Assembly (NCBI GenBank): GCA_049274945.1
Contig: JBASTP010000012.1
Coordinates: 1 to 41,608, forward strand
Reading direction: 5' to 3'
Length of the DNA stretch: 41,608 nucleotides
Origin: Patescibacteria group bacterium
Lineage (GTDB): Bacteria; Patescibacteriota; UBA1384; GWA2-35-9; JBASTP01
The translations under genes and the position numbers were made by a program. Numbering within the stretch: the first letter of the stretch is position 1; the number at the start of each line of letters is the position of its first letter. Shown in pieces: positions 1,755 to 41,608 of the stretch. The notes under the pieces are model-generated. The model saw nothing but the letters and a program-made list of their open reading frames with translations. It made no database searches and was not told where the DNA came from.

Positions 1755-1827
1755 GCGCCTATAGCTCAAGGGATAGAGCGAAGGGTTTCTAACCCTTAGG
1801 TTGCAGGTTCGAATCCTGCTAGGCGCA
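1755..1827 (+). tRNA. tRNA-Arg (anticodon TCT)
   Basis: Cloverleaf: acceptor gcgccta/taggcgc, D arm gctcaagggatagagc, anticodon stem aaggg/ccctt with loop tttctaa, T arm gcagg-ttcgaat-cctgc. Confidence 0.8.
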
Positions 1828-1837
1828 CAAGCAACAA

Positions 1838-1990
1838 CGCAGGATTCGAACGCGAAAGGGGGTCGGGGAAAACAGAAATCTGTGTTTTCCCCGTGGGCGG
1901 AAGCCCACGAAACCGAGGGGTTTCGTGAAGCAAATCTGCCGTAGCGAAGGCCTCCAGTAGCTTAGGCAGATTTGCTTGTGAGATTCCCTG
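1838..1990 (+). ncRNA. copy 1 of a tRNA-adjacent structured repeat (core about 147 nt, 1842-1988)
   Basis: Near-identical to 6740-6886 and the reverse complement of 41414-41560. Contains hairpins GGGGAAAACA..TGTTTTCCCC, GTGGGC-GGAA-GCCCAC, CACGAAACC..GGTTTCGTG and GCAAATCTGCC..GGCAGATTTGC. The 3' end (gattccctgccgggctcac) resembles the tRNA-Arg 3' end (gaatcctgctaggcgcac). Confidence 0.55.
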
Positions 1991-2032
1991 CCGGGCTCAC
2001 CATATACCCAGCGTCTCAAATAGTTAGTCGAT

Positions 2033-3576: not shown

Positions 3577-4059
3577 ATGCCTTGGTTGAACTGCCGTATT
3601 TGTCAAAAGGAATTTTATACAAAGCCTAGGCTTATCAACAGGGGCTGGGGTAAGTATTGCTCGGTGGTCTGTAAGGCAAAGTCACAGTTTAATGGAAGCC
3701 ACTTTAATTGCGAGTATTGTGGTAAGTGGGTATATAGGCCTCCAGGAGAAATTCGAAAATCCCAAAGTCAAAGGTTTTTTTGCTCTCGAGCTTGCCATTG
3801 TGGTTGGCAGAATAAGCACTCACGAGCGAGGGAGAATTCACCTAACTGGAAAGGTGGTGGAAGTGTTTACCGTTCCGTTCTTGAAAAATCGGAAGCTCTT
3901 AAGCAGTGTAATTGTTGTGGTACCAGTGATATGCGAGTGCTTATTGTCCATCACAAGGATAGAAATAGGCAAAACAGCGCACTGGAAAACCTATTGTGGT
4001 TATGCCATAATTGCCACCATCTAGTCCACCATTATGGTGGCTGTAGCTCAGTCAGTTAG
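3577..4059 (+). CDS. HNH endonuclease (N-terminal zinc-ribbon plus NWKGG plus HNH motif)
   Basis: 160 aa. Contains CRIC..C, NWKGGGSVYRS, and HHKDRNRQNSALENLLWLCHNCHHLVHH, the canonical HNH signature. The 3' end overlaps the first 24 nt of tRNA-His. Confidence 0.75.
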   Translation: MPWLNCRICQKEFYTKPRLINRGWGKYCSVVCKAKSQFNGSHFNCEYCGKWVYRPPGEIRKSQSQRFFCSRACHCGWQNKHSRARENSPNWKGGGSVYRSVLEKSEALKQCNCCGTSDMRVLIVHHKDRNRQNSALENLLWLCHNCHHLVHHYGGCSSVS

Positions 4060-5665: not shown

Positions 5666-5732
5666 TGCGCCCGTAGCCCCGACGCAAGGTCGGGATCCCG
5701 ACACCGAAGGTCGTCGGGACTCAGTGGAGCAG
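5666..5732. repeat. CCCGAC/GTCGGG double-hairpin repeat (family member b)
   Basis: gcgcccgtagCCCCGACgcaagGTCGGGAtCCCGACaccgaaggtcGTCGGGActcag. Shares its 5' motif gtagccccgac and 3' motif gtcgggactcag with 30668-30745, and gtagccccgac with 31116-31174. Confidence 0.6.
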
Positions 5733-5740
5733 TTATAGAT

Positions 5741-5813
5741 GCGCCCGTAGCTCAGTGGATAGAGCGGCTGGCTTCGAACCAGCAGGTCGGGGGTCCAATT
5801 CCCTCCGGGCGCG
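5741..5813 (+). tRNA. tRNA-Arg (anticodon TCG)
   Basis: Acceptor gcgcccg/cgggcgc. D arm gctcagtggatagagc. Anticodon stem gctgg/ccagc with loop cttcgaa. Confidence 0.7.
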
Positions 5814-5850
5814 CATTGCGTTCTTGAACTCGTTATGAAAGGAGGTCCTC

Positions 5851-6619: not shown

Positions 6620-6691
6620 GGGCCTGTAGCTCAGGGGTAGAGCAGTTGCCTCTTAAGCAATTTGTCGCGGGTTCGAATCCCGCCAGGCCCT
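6620..6691 (+). tRNA. tRNA-Lys (anticodon CTT)
   Basis: Acceptor gggcctg/caggccc. D arm gctcaggggtagagc. Anticodon loop ctcttaa. T arm gcggg-ttcgaat-cccgc. Confidence 0.8.
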
Positions 6692-6692
6692 C

Positions 6693-6887
6693 GTACAAAA
6701 AGACTCGCCTTGCGCGAGTTCTTTTTGTACTGGTATATGGGATTCGAACGCGAAAGGGGGTCGGGGAAAACAGAAATCTGTGTTTTCCCCGTGCGCGGAA
6801 GCCCACGAAACCGAGGGGTTTCGTGAAGCAAATCTGCCGTAGCGAAGGCCTCCAGTAGCTTAGGCAGATTTGCTGGTGAGATTCCCG
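6693..6887 (+). ncRNA. copy 2 of the tRNA-adjacent structured repeat (leader hairpin 6693-6730 plus core 6740-6886)
   Basis: Hairpin caaaaagactcgcc-ttgc-gcgagttctttttg followed by the core. The element ends gagattcccgccaggccctc, a direct repeat of the tRNA-Lys 3' end gaatcccgccaggccctc at 6675-6692. Confidence 0.55.
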
Positions 6888-6897
6888 CCAGGCCCTC

Positions 6898-7644
6898 ATG
6901 GAGAATCAAAAAAATATCCAGCAATCTGCCGCTGAAAATATCGCCAAGGTAACAAAAGCCGGGGCACAGGCTGTTACTGTTTACGAAATATTCAAATCAA
7001 TAATTTGGATTGTTGTTTCTATACCGATTGCAATCTATCTAATCTCTTTCGGAGTTCCGTGGTATTTTATTATTCCGATTCCCATTATCGGGATAGTATT
7101 TGCTCTACTTAGTATGATTTCGATTCGCCGAATATCTGCAGTCAATTTGGAGCATAGCAATCTTACGGCTCCCCAGGTAAGTGTGCCCATTGAACCTAAT
7201 GAGAAGGTCGTCGATTACATTCCGGGGATAATAAAAACAGGTTTTGGCCTCCGTGGTTATGAGGTGCTGGGCGCTGGGAAAATTCTCGATTCGGAGAACC
7301 TGATGCTATTAACCAATGCGTCGGTGCTATTTGTCACGATTCCGCTGCCGGGCGGCGATAAAATTATTCAAGCTATCGATATACCGATGTGGCAATGGTT
7401 GGCAGCCAGTAAGGAAATTGATCAAAAAGCCAAGGATCTTATTTCATCATATTCACTCATGCAAATGCAGCAGCTGAATATGATTCGGGCAGGAGTTGCG
7501 TTGCAAACATTGGACAGGGTGAAGATAAATAATATTTTCGGGAGTATTACGTTCGTCACAAAGACCGGGGAAAAATACTCATACTCTATTAGAAATAAAG
7601 AAAATAGAGAAAAAGCAAAAAATTTGTTCGCCCAGTTTTTATAA
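6898..7644 (+). CDS. hypothetical membrane protein (AT-rich island)
   Basis: 248 aa with two or three TM helices near the N-terminus. Codon usage and GC differ from the flanking backbone. Confidence 0.5.
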   Translation: MENQKNIQQSAAENIAKVTKAGAQAVTVYEIFKSIIWIVVSIPIAIYLISFGVPWYFIIPIPIIGIVFALLSMISIRRISAVNLEHSNLTAPQVSVPIEPNEKVVDYIPGIIKTGFGLRGYEVLGAGKILDSENLMLLTNASVLFVTIPLPGGDKIIQAIDIPMWQWLAASKEIDQKAKDLISSYSLMQMQQLNMIRAGVALQTLDRVKINNIFGSITFVTKTGEKYSYSIRNKENREKAKNLFAQFL

Positions 7645-7893
7645 CATCAGCAGCGTACCGTTACCACCTTCCTCGTTCCACCACGATGGTGGAAGTACAG
7701 TTTGACCTGCGAGATTTCCATCAAGGCTCTCCACACTTCGCTAAAGTTTCGTCTAGTGAGCAATCGTTACTTTTATACTAGTTAGGTCTCATGAGAAAAG
7801 TGATAGTCTTAAGATAAGAACGCTGTGAAACTATAAAAAACAGAAAAATTAGGTTTCTTGATTTTTTCAATAAGGGAGACTAAAATTTAGACA

Positions 7894-8349
7894 ATGATTT
7901 TAGCACAAAAAAAACAACTCGAATCTTGGTACCACATTGCACGTGTGCTTACAATTTTTGCATTATTTTTTTCTGTGGGCGGGTTGTCTTTCTTCAAAAA
8001 TACTGAAGGTGCAATAATTTTTGTGGTAAGTCGGGTTGCTATTTTTTGGCCATTGTATCTAATTGGAACTCTTGAATTAAAAAATAGACTTGAACTTCTT
8101 CAGAACCAAAAAGAAATAAAAGAGAGATCGAAAAATTGGGCTGCGATCATCGGTTTTATTTTAGGGATCACTGCTGTTCTTTTCGGATTTGGTACTATAC
8201 CATCGGTTTTGATCAGTGCTTACGGCCTTACCAAACATAACCTCGGTAAAGGAGGTAAATGGTATGCCATAGCTGGTTTAATACTAAGCCTTTCGACATT
8301 GTTTATTGTTGGTGGAATTTTAGGAAAAACTCTGATCAACACAAAATAA
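7894..8349 (+). CDS. hypothetical small membrane protein (AT-rich island)
   Basis: 151 aa with four predicted TM segments. Confidence 0.45.
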   Translation: MILAQKKQLESWYHIARVLTIFALFFSVGGLSFFKNTEGAIIFVVSRVAIFWPLYLIGTLELKNRLELLQNQKEIKERSKNWAAIIGFILGITAVLFGFGTIPSVLISAYGLTKHNLGKGGKWYAIAGLILSLSTLFIVGGILGKTLINTK

Positions 8350-8350
8350 A

Positions 8351-8725
8351 TCAAGGGTCACGTAATATTCCTTTGAGACGATCAGTTACAGTCTTGAAGC
8401 ATATCGAAGTTTTATAATTTTTTTCCTCGACTGCTGCGTAGAGCAAACATGGGATATAATATCCAGAACTCGAAATAACAAACCATAATCGCCCCCCTTT
8501 TGATGGTGGAGTGATGGGAGTCGTTATTTTTATCCTGTCCTTACAAACTATATACCCCGGTCGGTTAGCTATCTGGCAAGATAAGCGTCCAAGTTCCCCG
8601 TATTGATTTGAGTGCGCGCCAAAATAAATTTCTAAATCCTTTATTAGTGATTTAAATCTTTTAAGTCGCCTAATATCATGTTCTATCAAGCTATTGCCGT
8701 AATGTTTTAGGTTTCGTCCTTCCAT
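8351..8725 (-). CDS. hypothetical basic protein, candidate toxin partner of the upstream Panacea-domain gene
   Basis: 124-aa ORF immediately downstream of the DUF4065 gene on the same strand, overlapping it by 35 nt. No recognisable domain. Confidence 0.3.
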   Translation of the reverse strand: MEGRNLKHYGNSLIEHDIRRLKRFKSLIKDLEIYFGAHSNQYGELGRLSCQIANRPGYIVCKDRIKITTPITPPSKGGRLWFVISSSGYYIPCLLYAAVEEKNYKTSICFKTVTDRLKGILRDP

Positions 8726-9308
8726 CCCGACTCAACTTTATATCAACTCGATTCATGAGTTCAGCGAATTGGTTTGAACCGAATAATTTAGTTGCTTCCG
8801 GATTCTCTAAATCCAAATCATCTTCCTGATCTTCGATATAATGAGCCAAATCATAATCAATTATCTCGCCCGTATTTTTAGTAGCCAGATAAGGGAAATC
8901 GGAATGCGATATTTCGCTGATCTCTCGAGGGTAAAGACCCTTGTAGGCTTCATTAATTGTATTAATAGTCAACAACTCTGATTCAGAAAAATGTTCACTA
9001 GGTTTTATGTCTGGATTAGCAATTGCAAAGTTTTTTTGGATGGCACCATAATAATTAGAACTAATTAAACAAGTAATTAAGCCTTCTCTTTCCATCTCTT
9101 TAAGAATTTTTGGTAACTCCATGATTGTTGGCCCATAATTGTTCTTACGATAGGTAAAGCCAGTAATAGCTTGATTAGTTTTTTGGAAGTATCGGAAATC
9201 GCAGAAATATAAAAGTTTCTGCAGTTTTGTTTCAGTTAATTTATCGTTATTATATTTCTGAAAAATATAGAGAATTAAGTTTCTGAGTTTATTTTTATTA
9301 ATCCTCAT
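8691..9308 (-). CDS. Panacea (DUF4065) domain protein, PanA/SocA-like antitoxin
   Basis: 205 aa. KLQKLLYFCDFRYFQKTNQAITGFTYRKNNYGPTIMELPKIL matches the Panacea core (LQKLLYF ... F.Y..YGP). Confidence 0.6.
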   Translation of the reverse strand: MRINKNKLRNLILYIFQKYNNDKLTETKLQKLLYFCDFRYFQKTNQAITGFTYRKNNYGPTIMELPKILKEMEREGLITCLISSNYYGAIQKNFAIANPDIKPSEHFSESELLTINTINEAYKGLYPREISEISHSDFPYLATKNTGEIIDYDLAHYIEDQEDDLDLENPEATKLFGSNQFAELMNRVDIKLSRDGRTKPKTLRQ

Positions 9309-9491
9309 TGTTAGTCCTCATTCCTTTCCCCAAGTATACAAGCAAATATCAAATTATAGCAAGCTTAGGCAGCAAACATATGAATATTTTCTATTCTAAG
9401 GTCATTTGTTGATAATTCCTGCAATTTGCCCGATCATTTACCTACTAAAAATTGAACCCACCCAACTCTATCCCTAAACGCCACCTTTAGT

Positions 9492-9520
9492 TTGACAAAC
9501 CGTCCATTTTGTGGTATACT
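9492..9520 (+). promoter_or_regulatory. consensus sigma70 promoter TTGACA-17-TATACT for the DEAD-box helicase (about 85-nt 5' UTR)
   Basis: tTTGACAaaccgtccattttgtggTATACTatagg. Confidence 0.6.
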
Positions 9521-9608
9521 ATAGGTTCGTATTGATAGATGAATGCCGAGCTCTGGTTTATTCTCGCTGTTCATCACGACACGAGTAGTAAACTGAGGTA
9601 TTCATTAT

Positions 9609-11167: not shown

Positions 11168-11884
11168 ATGATCAAGGGCGCGGTTATTCTATTGCTCGCG
11201 TATCTTGTATACACAGTAGTAAAATCAGCAATTCTGCTGCGCCAGGGTAGCCGGTTGATCATCGATAGTAATTTTAACAATAGCTATACCCTCGGCGACC
11301 CAAAAAATCCCGAACTCACCTATCTTGTGTTAGGCGACAGCACGGCGGTTGGAGTTGGGGCGTCTGATCTGCAACATAGCTACCCGTATGCCGTAGCCCA
11401 GTAGCTATCTGGGCAAGGCAGTTCTGTGCGAGTCGTTACGATTGCTAAAAGTGGCGCAACGGTGGCTGATGTCGTGGCCGAACAACTTCCCAAAATTGCC
11501 GAAATTAAACCCGATATTATTTCTATTTCAATTGGTGGCAACGATGCTACCCATATGACGGGTCTCGTGAGTTTTGAAAAAGATATGAGAACAATTATCG
11601 CCGCGCTCCAGCAATCCGGCGCTGGGCAAGTGCTCTTCGGTTCTACCCCCAACATGTTCGCCATTCCCGCGCTGCCGCGCTGGTTTTCTTGGCTGGCTGG
11701 CCGCCGGAGTATCGAGCAAAATGAACTAACCAAAAGCCTGCTGCCGGCATCGTTCCACTATGTTGATATTTTCAACAAGGCGCGACTCGAAGGGTTGCCC
11801 GATTATGCTCAAGATTGGTTCCACCCCAACGATAAAGGCTACGAGCGCTGGTCTAAGGCATTTAAGGGCTTGATTGCCAAATAG
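11168..11884 (+). pseudogene. SGNH/GDSL hydrolase interrupted by one in-frame TAG (11402-11404)
   Basis: ORFs 11168..11404 and 11426..11884 share one frame. Block I LVLGDSTAVGVGAS lies before the stop. Block II KSGATVADV, block III IGGNDA and block V DWFHPNDKGY lie after it. ATG is 2 nt after the tRNA-Glu 3' end. Confidence 0.55.
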
Positions 11885-31115: not shown

Positions 31116-31174
31116 CATTCGTGGTAGCCCCGACGTCCGACGAGTCGGGGTGCCGACTGAAACGTCGGCAAGCA
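31116..31174. repeat. CCCGAC/GTCGGG hairpin repeat (family member d), inserted between tRNA-Val and its duplicated 3' fragment
   Basis: gtagCCCCGACgtccgacgagtcgGGGTGCCGACtgaaacGTCGGCAagca. Confidence 0.5.
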
Positions 31175-31222
31175 GTCTCTTTGACGTAGAGAGGGTCAGA
31201 GGTTCGATTCCTCTCGCGCGCA
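31175..31222 (+). other. tRNA-Val 3' fragment (anticodon arm, T arm and acceptor 3' strand, no 5' half), att-like duplication
   Basis: gtctctttgacgtagagagggtcagaggttcgattcctctcgcgcgca parallels 31068-31115 with compensatory T-stem changes. No matching 5' acceptor strand (gcgcgcg) or D arm upstream. Confidence 0.55.
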
Positions 31223-41301: not shown

Positions 41302-41413
41302 AAACGAGAGACTTTGTCCTCGTTTAGTCTGACATAAATTGTAGTTTCACTCAAGGATATATGTGGAGAGGGAATTATATTGGCTAATTGAGGTGTTAAG
41401 TGAAGAAGACCCA

Positions 41414-41608
41414 AGGGGAAGCGAACAAGTAAATCTGCCTAAGCTCTGGAGACCTCGCTACGGCAGATTTACTTCACGAAACTCTTCCGTTTCGTGGGCT
41501 TCCGCCTACGGGGAAAACACAGATTTCTGTTTTCCCCGACCCCCTTTCGCGTTCGATTCCCCTTGCCCTAATCACGAAAAGAACTCGCATAAAGCGAGTC
41601 TTTCGTGA
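41414..41608 (-). ncRNA. copy 3 of the tRNA-adjacent structured repeat (minus strand, diverged, with leader hairpin), running to the window end
   Basis: The reverse complement aligns with copies 1 and 2. Stem changes are compensatory: gcaaatctgcc/ggcagatttgc becomes gtaaatctgcc/ggcagatttac, and the leader hairpin caaaaag..ctttttg becomes cacgaaag..cttttcgtg. Confidence 0.5.

Follow-up and report, generated by a model that had tools for sequence, protein, structure and literature searches.

A structured multi-copy element with inverted and direct tRNA-derived arms at tRNA 3' flanks in Patescibacteria

Introduction

Genes for tRNAs are classic landing sites for mobile DNA, and to our knowledge this landing is always accomplished by a protein-coding element with its own recombinase. 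Tyrosine-integrase elements (prophages, ICEs and genomic islands) leave the tRNA intact and are bracketed by direct repeats of its 3' portion. In the contig considered here, a tRNA-Lys gene is followed a short distance downstream by a second copy of its own 3' end, and the question is what process put it there. The preliminary description offered two answers, namely that such repeats are scars of excised integrative elements, or that the structured element lying between them transposes using tRNA 3'-end homology. The window, by which we mean the whole 41.6 kb stretch of DNA analyzed, holds three copies of this element.

The Repeat at tRNA-Lys and the Three Copies in the Window

The last 18 nt of tRNA-Lys(ctt), gaatcccgccaggccctc (6675-6692), recur as the near-copy gattcccgccaggccctc at 6880-6897, in which TTCCCGCCAGGCCCTC occupies 6882-6897, and the 14 nt specific to tRNA-Lys, CCCGCCAGGCCCTC, stand without change at both 6679-6692 and 6884-6897. 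The gap is 187 bp between the two 18-mers and 191 bp between the 14-nt repeats, and there is no ORF between the repeats. The reported duplication of the tRNA-Lys 3' end is therefore real, with its second copy one base to the right of the position first given (6879-6896). The parts of this locus, which we call copy 2, are as follows.

6620..6692, plus strand: tRNA-Lys(ctt), intact (ARAGORN; Rfam tRNA, 73.3 bits; sequence)
6679-6692, plus strand: proximal repeat copy CCCGCCAGGCCCTC, comprising the T-stem 3' strand, acceptor 3' strand, N73 and C of tRNA-Lys
6693..6730, plus strand: A/T-extended long hairpin, bidirectional terminator-like, between tRNA-Lys and copy 2 (terminator scan; fold)
6737..6749, plus strand: left arm X of copy 2, ATGGGATTCGAAC, matching the reverse complement of tRNA-Lys G53, T-loop and T-stem 3' strand at 11/13 positions
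6750..6875, plus strand: structured core of copy 2, with GCGAAAGGGGGTCGGGGAAAA (the core portion of an invariant 27-mer) followed by four hairpins (folding, consensus structure, covariation)
6876..6883, plus strand: right terminus of the core, constant and T-loop-like (G-TGAGATT; GTTCGATT in other copies) (alignments)
6884..6897, plus strand: right arm of copy 2, an exact 14-nt direct copy of tRNA-Lys positions 61-74 (sequence)

The right arm of copy 2 abuts the ATG of an ORF at 6898-7644. Copy 1 lies 3' of a tRNA-Arg gene, and copy 3 is cut by the window end.

1755..1828, plus strand: tRNA-Arg(tct), intact, 5' of copy 1 (ARAGORN; Rfam)
1839..1851, plus strand: left arm X of copy 1, GCAGGATTCGAAC, an exact reverse complement (13/13) of tRNA-Arg(tct) positions 53-65
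1852..1985, plus strand: core of copy 1, including the T-loop-like terminus (G-TGAGATT, 1978-1985) (identity to copy 2; fold)
1986..2002, plus strand: right arm of copy 1, CCCTGCCGGGCTCACCA, repeating the tRNA-Arg 3' end in degenerate form and ending in CCA, with one extra base at the junction
41405..41608, minus strand: copy 3, cut by the window end (92% identity to copy 2, compensatory changes)
41608-41572, minus strand: hairpin of copy 3
41565-41551, minus strand: left arm of copy 3
41426-41419, minus strand: T-loop-like terminus of copy 3, GTTCGCTT
41418-41405, minus strand: right arm of copy 3, CCCCTTGGGTCTTC

The tRNA-Arg(tct) gene ends in ...GAATCCTGCTAGGCGCAC at 1811-1828 (final stretch ...CCTGCTAGGCGCAC), and the sequence after copy 1, GATTCCCTGCCGGGCTCACCA at 1982-2002, agrees with this end at 13 of 20 positions, 5 nt of them uninterrupted; copy 1 had been said to show the same pattern in more degenerate form, and indeed it does. 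Copy 1 has no hairpin, and only a 10-nt spacer (1829-1838) separates its tRNA from its left arm. Over 147 nt, copy 2 (6740-6886) and copy 1 (1842-1988) are 99% identical. Copy 3 (minus strand, ~41561-41405) shares ~92% identity with copy 2, and its changes are in part compensatory, as in AGCAAATCTGCC/GGCAGATTTGCT to AGTAAATCTGCC/GGCAGATTTACT. The host tRNA of copy 3 lies beyond the window end; its 3' end is predicted to read ...GTTCGATTCCCCTTGGGTCT.

The general plan is thus a tRNA, usually a terminator-like hairpin, a spacer of 7-14 nt, the left arm, the core, the T-loop-like terminus, the right arm and an unrelated flank.

Copies in Other Patescibacteria

To gather further copies, each large collection was scanned once with an exact core pattern, and the fetched loci were then compared by BLAST. 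Together with the three in the window, five copies on other Patescibacteria contigs bring the total to eight, on at least five contigs.

L002 (= L007): copy after tRNA-Ser(cga), in a Candidatus Paceibacterota MAG
L005: copy after tRNA-Phe, from the same metagenome as L008
L008: copy after tRNA-Asp, from the same metagenome as L005
L006: copy after tRNA-Arg(gcg)
L009: truncated and decayed relic after tRNA-Gly(tcc), on a Berkelbacteria contig syntenic with the window

All eight copies lie 3' of eight different tRNA genes, on the tRNA strand and ~10-55 nt from the tRNA 3' end, with a structured core of ~130-160 nt. Seven are full-length, and for six of these seven the host tRNA is on the contig. 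The eight host tRNAs all have the canonical GTTCGA[AT]T loop, as against nine of 16 element-free tRNAs of the same sequences, a bias with p ~0.03 in a hypergeometric calculation.

Orthologous tRNA-Lys(ctt) genes in L009, the syntenic relative, and in L011, as well as the orthologous tRNA-Arg(tct) in L009, carry neither the element nor the duplication. The preliminary description had held that relatives sharing the flanking sequence, but lacking element and duplication, would make the similarity a coincidence. Although the relatives do lack both, the flanks of their tRNAs are too diverged to act as exact empty sites, and that test is inapplicable as it was framed. Coincidence is instead excluded by the independent recurrences at other tRNAs described below. 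Among the fetched loci we found no transposition intermediate, no empty site with conserved flanks and no strain-level presence/absence polymorphism. The element had no BLAST match in phage and plasmid collections, pattern scans of viral contigs gave chance matches only (L003, L004, L013), and exact-protein look-ups for strain variants or for a contig extending past copy 3 were mostly empty.

Arms Derived from the Neighboring tRNA

The right arm repeats the host tRNA in direct orientation from position 61 onward, and comprises the T-stem 3' strand, the acceptor 3' strand, N73 and C or CA. It runs uninterrupted for 14, 15, 14 and 15 nt in copy 2, L002, L006 and L008, respectively, and is degraded in copy 1 and L005. 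The same right-flank rule holds independently for tRNA-Ser, tRNA-Asp, tRNA-Arg(gcg) and tRNA-Phe in the other genomes. As a control, the last 16 nt of 16 element-free tRNAs (window and fetched loci) were compared with their best match within 450 nt downstream. Twelve of these tRNAs gave 8-10/16, one gave 11/16 (tRNA-Arg(cct) of L002), and two GC-rich chance matches reached 12-13, whereas the element-bearing tRNAs gave 14-16/16 in four cases and 11/16 in the two decayed copies. The repeat therefore exceeds chance. The distal copy ends in CCA in copy 1 and L006, although the host tRNA genes do not encode CCA.

The left arm, which had previously gone unnoticed, reads as G53, the T-loop and the T-stem 3' strand of the host tRNA in reverse complement. 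It matches the host tRNA at 13/13 positions in copy 1, L002, L005 and L008 (14/14 in L008 if position 66 is counted), and at 11/13 in copy 2 and L006. At the variable T-loop position 59 (A59/T59) the left arm tracks the host tRNA, and the distal T-loop is constant. The proximal tRNA fits the left arm better than the distal copy does in five of the six copies, and equally well in L006. In a cross-matrix of arms against tRNAs, intact arms fit their own tRNA best; the exceptions are the degraded right arm of copy 1, which ties with other tRNAs, and the degraded left arm of copy 2, which fits another tRNA slightly better. The part of the left arm that matches the tRNA varies in length, extending ~1 to 7 nt past a shared GG. 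At the junction of the T-loop-like terminus with the right arm there is one extra base in copy 1 and L008, and a stutter, GATTCCGCCCC|GATTCCGCCC, in L005.

Core, Hairpin and Predicted Fold

An invariant 27-mer, TCGAACGCGAAAGGGGGTCGGGGAAAA (TCGAAC|GCGAAAGGGGGTCGGGGAAAA), runs from the end of the left arm into the core, and is conserved across distant genomes. It is followed by three or four covarying hairpins, with a middle region that occurs in two subtypes. The right terminus reads GTTCGATT, with the variants GTGAGATT in copies 1 and 2 and L005 and GTTCGCTT in copy 3, so the two core termini (ATTCGAAC ... GTTCGATT) are inverted T-loop mimics. They form terminal inverted repeats, A[T/A]TCGAAC on the left and GTTCGATT or GTGAGATT on the right, which extend to 11-13 bp together with the tRNA-specific part.

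The element folds more stably than shuffled sequence, with z = -7.3 for copy 2 and -6.4 for copy 1. In an RNAalifold consensus of the five type-A copies, the arms form a closing helix around four hairpins, and 94.5% of cells are paired, compared with 30-52% after the partners are shifted by one to three columns. At six pairs both sides have changed, and none of 500 shuffles reaches the observed covariation score; over five related sequences, this covariation is supportive of the core structure, not proof of it. Counts of G-U versus A-C pairs do not decide between the strands.

When tRNA and element are folded together, the predicted minimum free energy structure is a 'swapped' cloverleaf in copy 2, L002, L006 and L008. 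In this structure the acceptor stem is formed by its 5' strand and the distal copy, the left arm base-pairs with the tRNA's own T-loop and T-stem 3' strand, and the terminator hairpin caps the resulting long stem. The swapped fold is 9-14.5 kcal/mol below the tRNA and the rest folded separately.

A terminator-like hairpin stands between tRNA and element in six of the seven full copies. Those of copies 2 and 3 are homologous, since AAAGACTCGC..GCGAGTTCTTT occurs in the window only at 6699-6724 and 41603-41578, and this likeness suggests that the hairpin may travel with the element. In L006, an element-free tRNA-Gly has a hairpin of the same style downstream, and in at least this genome the hairpin looks native, that is, a tRNA terminator. 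No promoter for the element was evident. Rfam 15, whose families include tmRNA, the group I intron and Y RNA, recognized only tRNAs in the whole window at gathering score, Rfam E-value scans of copies 1 and 2 and L002 gave chance-level matches only (at most 21.6 bits), and ARAGORN found no tmRNA.

Gene Context

Thirty ORFs of the window scanned with Pfam are housekeeping genes and a few of unknown function, and include no integrase, recombinase, transposase, Cas1 or reverse transcriptase, which bears out for the window the earlier remark that no integrase is present. Y1_Tnp is likewise absent from the window; the L009 contig has a Y1_Tnp gene beside tRNA-Arg(tct), with no sequence link to the core. 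Compared with the syntenic relative, the gene content 3' of both tRNA-Lys and tRNA-Arg(tct) differs, and the window has ~2.7 kb of additional genes between tRNA-Lys and a DEAD-box helicase gene, a SocA/Panacea antitoxin-like gene among them. Among the loci examined, no protein gene is consistently linked to the element. ORF248, which abuts the repeat, has few homologues, and the one context that was retrieved has neither tRNA nor element.

Origin of the Repeat

We tentatively favor the reading that the repeat is part of a multi-copy, non-autonomous structured element specific to Patescibacteria (CPR), which colonizes tRNA 3' flanks by T-loop-guided copy-choice. The anatomy and distribution of the element can be read directly from the loci above, and from them we infer the copy-choice mechanism. 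The spreading unit would be the core, whose termini have near-palindromic microhomology to the T-loops of nearly all tRNA genes; owing to the TTCGAA palindrome, a strand ending in a core terminus could anneal to a T-loop from either end of the element. A new copy would arise beside a tRNA gene when DNA synthesis switches between the element and the neighboring tRNA gene at the T-loop, and synthesis running outward to the tRNA 3' end would leave the left copy inverted and the right copy direct, as observed. Copying of the right arm would stop at the end of the tRNA gene, where the stable terminator hairpin begins. If the hairpin is native, insertion would take place 3' of the terminator, and the end of the right arm at the hairpin base would be accounted for. 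The enzyme would be supplied in trans, and insertion would be tolerated because the tRNA stays intact. The direct repeat would thus be a by-product of settling beside a tRNA, and therefore not an attL/attR pair.

Several features look selfish, namely the multiple copies, their patchy presence, the decayed relic, the degraded arms and the 99% identity of copies 1 and 2 at different tRNAs. In addition, the junction details (extra base, stutter, left arm of variable length, right arm ending at the point where the stable hairpin starts) look like sloppy templated synthesis from T-loop microhomology. The earlier suggestion that the element transposes via tRNA 3'-end homology is therefore broadly supported as the best reading, but the homology that matters is the universal T-loop. 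Copy-choice nevertheless has its difficulties. Symmetric microhomology alone does not explain the same orientation in all eight copies, and the near-identity of copies 1 and 2 could reflect gene conversion between old copies instead of recent copying. The homology of the copy 2 and copy 3 hairpins is more easily reconciled with an integrative unit that carries the tRNA 3' end than with copy-choice, and the invariant 27-mer, the covariation and the preference for the swapped fold are equally compatible with a selected RNA function.

Such a function is the first alternative to be weighed, and we consider it somewhat improbable. The element would be a tRNA-coupled non-coding RNA, co-transcribed with or acting on the tRNA, with arms kept matched by selection. 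Its left arm would pair with the T-loop and T-stem 3' strand and its right arm would replace the tRNA 3' strand, yielding the swapped cloverleaf with a ~150-nt domain on the T-arm, and its role could lie in processing, or it could be a decoy or a spare 3' half. Helices that covary around a 27-mer invariant across distant genomes speak for this reading, as do the swapped minimum free energy fold of the whole transcript in copy 2, L002, L006 and L008, and the left arm's preference for the proximal over the distal copy (5/6, equal in the sixth). It also accommodates the location on the tRNA strand in 8/8 copies, and the distal CCA of copy 1 and L006 that is absent from the tRNA genes. However, a terminator-like hairpin intervenes in 6/7 full copies and the element has no evident promoter, tRNAs of any identity seem to be accepted, and the orthologous tRNAs of relatives do without the element. 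Moreover, the copies decay, as seen in the L009 relic, the right arms of copy 1 and L005 and the imperfect left arms of copy 2 and L006, and a single-stranded-DNA structure predicts the covariation equally well.

A more specific version, which we hold to be unlikely, is that of an RNA module re-wiring its tRNA. In read-through transcripts the left arm would strip away the T-loop and 3' strand, and the distal copy, with its CA or CCA, would substitute for them. The product would be a tRNA-shaped RNA in which a 150-nt domain replaces the T-loop, and it could be processed, CCA-tailed and even charged. Alternatively, the same arrangement could form a template/primer complex for self-copying beside new tRNAs, with both arms derived from the tRNA.

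It is also doubtful that the locus holds a miniature integrative element carrying a tRNA 3' end, inserted at the T-loop/T-stem boundary by a recombinase acting in trans. The enzyme would, with similarly low probability, be a tyrosine recombinase using a folded single-stranded att site, as in CTX-phi and integron attC, or a Cas1-like casposase making a 14-15 bp duplication. The proximal 3' end and the hairpin would then be element-borne and the distal copy the displaced original, an assignment that we likewise think improbable. A direct repeat of 14-15 bp that begins directly after the T-loop is in keeping with this scheme and parallels the casposase target of Aciduliprofundum boonei (PMC5137440). 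The hairpins of copies 2 and 3 are homologous, as if they lay within the unit, the left arm would give the folded strand a duplex copy of the target, and the extra junction base in copy 1 and L008 and the CA or CCA kept by distal copies fit as well. Against it, the boundaries that it requires (hairpin start versus end of the T-loop-like terminus) have no terminal inverted repeats, and the near-identical cores of copies 1 and 2 would need different tRNA-specific segments at two internal places. The left arm follows the chromosomal A59/T59 variant and not the element's own constant T-loop-like terminus, the hairpin may be native, given the similar one at the element-free tRNA of L006, and is lacking from copy 1, and the window contains no recombinase or Cas1.

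Finally, we reject as highly improbable the idea that the repeats are attL/attR scars of larger integrase-borne islands since excised or deleted. It draws on the direct repeats of the tRNA 3' end and on the gene content 3' of tRNA-Lys and tRNA-Arg(tct), which differs from that of the syntenic relative, but is largely refuted by the same conserved, covarying core of ~150 nt between repeats at eight tRNAs with constant architecture and spacing, by an inverted tRNA-derived left arm that attL/attR sites do not predict, by near-identical copy 1 and copy 2 cores with different arms, and by the lack of a nearby recombinase, the window being without an integrase. Nor does the repeat recur beyond the variable regions: a scan of the window for further tRNA-Lys, tRNA-Arg or copy 3 3' ends that might act as far-side att sites found none.

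Relation to Known Systems

Like the att sites of tyrosine integrases, the locus has a tRNA 3' direct repeat (14-15 nt) and an intact tRNA gene. It differs from them in that only ~190 bp of non-coding, structured DNA separate the repeats, with no integrase, in that its repeat excludes the T-loop and has no dyad-symmetric core, and in the presence of a further, inverted T-loop and T-stem 3' strand. Furthermore, a given integrase lineage would have one att core, whereas the 99% identical cores of copies 1 and 2 bear Arg- and Lys-specific arms, respectively.

In CTX-phi attP(+) and integron attC, an inverted repeat with AAC...GTT termini folds one strand into a duplex copy of the target. The element strand can likewise fold into a duplex that copies its target, and has AAC...GTT termini; in contrast to these sites, no IntI or Xer link is apparent, its core is larger and multi-branched, and its left arm matches the chromosomal tRNA instead of its own T-loop-like terminus.

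In A. boonei, the casposase target consists of the T-psi-C-loop segment of tRNA-Pro and a 15-bp duplicated segment (PMC5137440). The element resembles casposons in its position at the tRNA 3' end; its T-psi-C loop may likewise be involved in recognition, and the adjacent 14-15 bp repeat, which starts right behind that loop, may be a target duplication of the same kind (PMC5137440). However, its repeat-adjacent boundaries, by reading, have no terminal inverted repeats, neither Cas1 nor PolB was seen, a hairpin and spacer stand between the left repeat and the core, and the whole is ~0.2 kb and non-coding. We know of no casposons from CPR bacteria.

Among small repeats, IS1397 inserts in the palindrome loops of REP units. 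With MITEs and REP repeats the element shares its small size, multiple copies, structure, non-coding and intergenic nature, inverted termini, patchy distribution and decayed copies. Unlike in MITEs, the bases flanking its termini are inverted and not direct (e.g., GTGGG...CCCAC), with no short target duplication there, the left copy of the direct repeat lies 45-65 nt from the left terminus (10 nt in copy 1), and the element is strictly tRNA-associated and oriented. No parent autonomous IS with the same termini was seen in the window or the fetched loci. A derivation from REP/RAYT or IS200/IS605 was set aside, as the core ends without a GTAG-palindrome and the window is without Y1_Tnp.

MMBIR, synthesis-dependent MMEJ and quasi-palindrome correction are sporadic repair events with serial template switching. 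As in insertions of this kind, the interleaved direct and inverted copies start at microhomology, vary in length, stutter and carry extra bases; unlike them, the outcome recurs at eight tRNAs in a fixed orientation, and this recurrence implies a dedicated or strongly channeled process.

Other candidates were tried and discarded. A tmRNA or two-piece tmRNA was considered for the 5' GGAUUCGA(A)C and the 3' resemblance to T-loop, acceptor and CCA, but there is no acceptor 5' strand and no ARAGORN or Rfam match, and host tRNA and left arm covary. A hammerhead was also dropped, since its motif (CUGGUGAG...GAAA) is a degenerate T-loop present in some copies only. A group I intron gives no Rfam signal here, and the published tRNA introns of Patescibacteria are group I introns in the anticodon loop (PMC13011429). 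A retron would need a reverse transcriptase, and none was found in the window; peel-and-paste by IS200/IS605 would leave a split tRNA and no duplication; guides in the style of IS110 bridge RNA or TnpB omega-RNA would have to be set before insertion; and simple tandem tRNA duplication with decay would need at least seven independent repeats of the same history.

Novelty and Meaning

Rfam and the searchable literature yielded no description of such an element. Small repeat elements that target tRNA 3' ends with duplication are already known; inverted together with direct tRNA-derived arms, T-loop-mimic termini and the potential for a swapped fold are not. A 0.2-kb non-coding element thus appears to use the universal T-loop as a handle and to gain tRNA-specific sequence on both sides. 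If the element is mobile, it would represent an undescribed route of insertion in the reduced genomes of CPR bacteria, by T-loop copy-choice or by a trans-acting integrase with a 14-15 bp ruler, and would also account for stray tRNA fragments that clutter and confuse annotation. Should the element prove to be a functional RNA, it would be the first structured RNA built to swap strands with a neighboring tRNA, and were either form of the re-wiring module true, it would constitute a new kind of tRNA-dependent RNA element in bacteria. In either case, a T-arm reverse complement followed by GCGAAAGGGGGTC provides a signature that can be searched for in CPR genomes. A mirror-image family occurs on the 5' side of tRNA genes, at the D-arm, and suggests a general phenomenon.

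Genes and 3' ends of tRNAs in the window and its relatives

In most of the tRNA genes of these CPR sequences the acceptor stem is followed by N73-C-A, and not by CCA or an arbitrary trailer. The comparison of 3' ends took in the window, four other patescibacterial loci that carry the structured element (L002 from a Candidatus Paceibacterota MAG, L005, L006 and L008) and L009, a Berkelbacteria contig syntenic with the window; the tRNA-Lys of L011, a relative with the orthologous tRNA-Lys(ctt), was also considered. The full CCA is encoded only by some genes, namely tRNA-His and tRNA-Pro of the window, tRNA-Arg(cct) of L002, tRNA-Pro of L009 and tRNA-Lys of L011.

The surroundings of tRNA-Lys differ in gene content, as about 2.7 kb of window DNA lying between this tRNA and the DEAD-box helicase gene (6898–9600) is missing in L009 (compared interval 11483–11785). 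This additional DNA comprises ORF248, which has no Pfam match, a SocA/Panacea antitoxin-like gene and two further ORFs, one of them TauE-like and the other 124 aa long. In the relatives, the gene order near tRNA-Lys is also unlike that of the window, with a 218-aa gene placed between uppS and tRNA-Lys. Two ORFs adjoining tRNAs, this one and a 160-aa ORF of the window, are possibly homing-endonuclease-like.

Window 3577–4059: 160-aa ORF, weak HNH_3 match, overlapping the start of tRNA-His
L009 10734–11390 and L011 880–1536: 218-aa ORF, upstream of tRNA-Lys in both

For the 218-aa ORF of L009 and L011 no Pfam match is on record; its motifs resemble those of HTH and LAGLIDADG proteins, as judged by eye only.

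A transposase gene of the IS200/RAYT type is present in L009, flanked by an SfLAP gene and tRNA-Arg(tct).

L009 6732–7385, minus strand: Y1_Tnp gene (PF01797), 217 aa

In the window, copy 1 of the element lies just downstream of the same tRNA; the Y1_Tnp gene and the element core share no sequence similarity.

Repeats on the 5' side of tRNA genes

A second family, a mirror image of the 3' element, occupies the 5' side of tRNAs in the window and in L005.

Window 5667–5738: copy before tRNA-Arg(tcg) (5741–5814)
Window 31122–31167: further site
L005 ~538–606 and ~878–950: copies before tRNA-Phe and tRNA-Val(tac)

Its members begin with a copy of the first 11 nt of the tRNA, starting exactly at +1 (e.g., GCGCCCGTAGC), continue with a pair of REP-like hairpins (CCCGAC...GTCGGG) that have GTAG in front of them, and finish with the D-loop-like CTCAGTGG, the intact tRNA standing ~2–12 nt further on. 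The window also has, next to an intact tRNA-Val(gac), another gene of this type that is incomplete and only tRNA-Val(gac)-like.

Window 31168–31222: partial gene, 51 nt past the intact tRNA-Val(gac), behind the REP-like hairpins

It is missing its 5' part and retains the anticodon arm, the T-arm and the 3' strand of the acceptor stem, CGCGCGCA.
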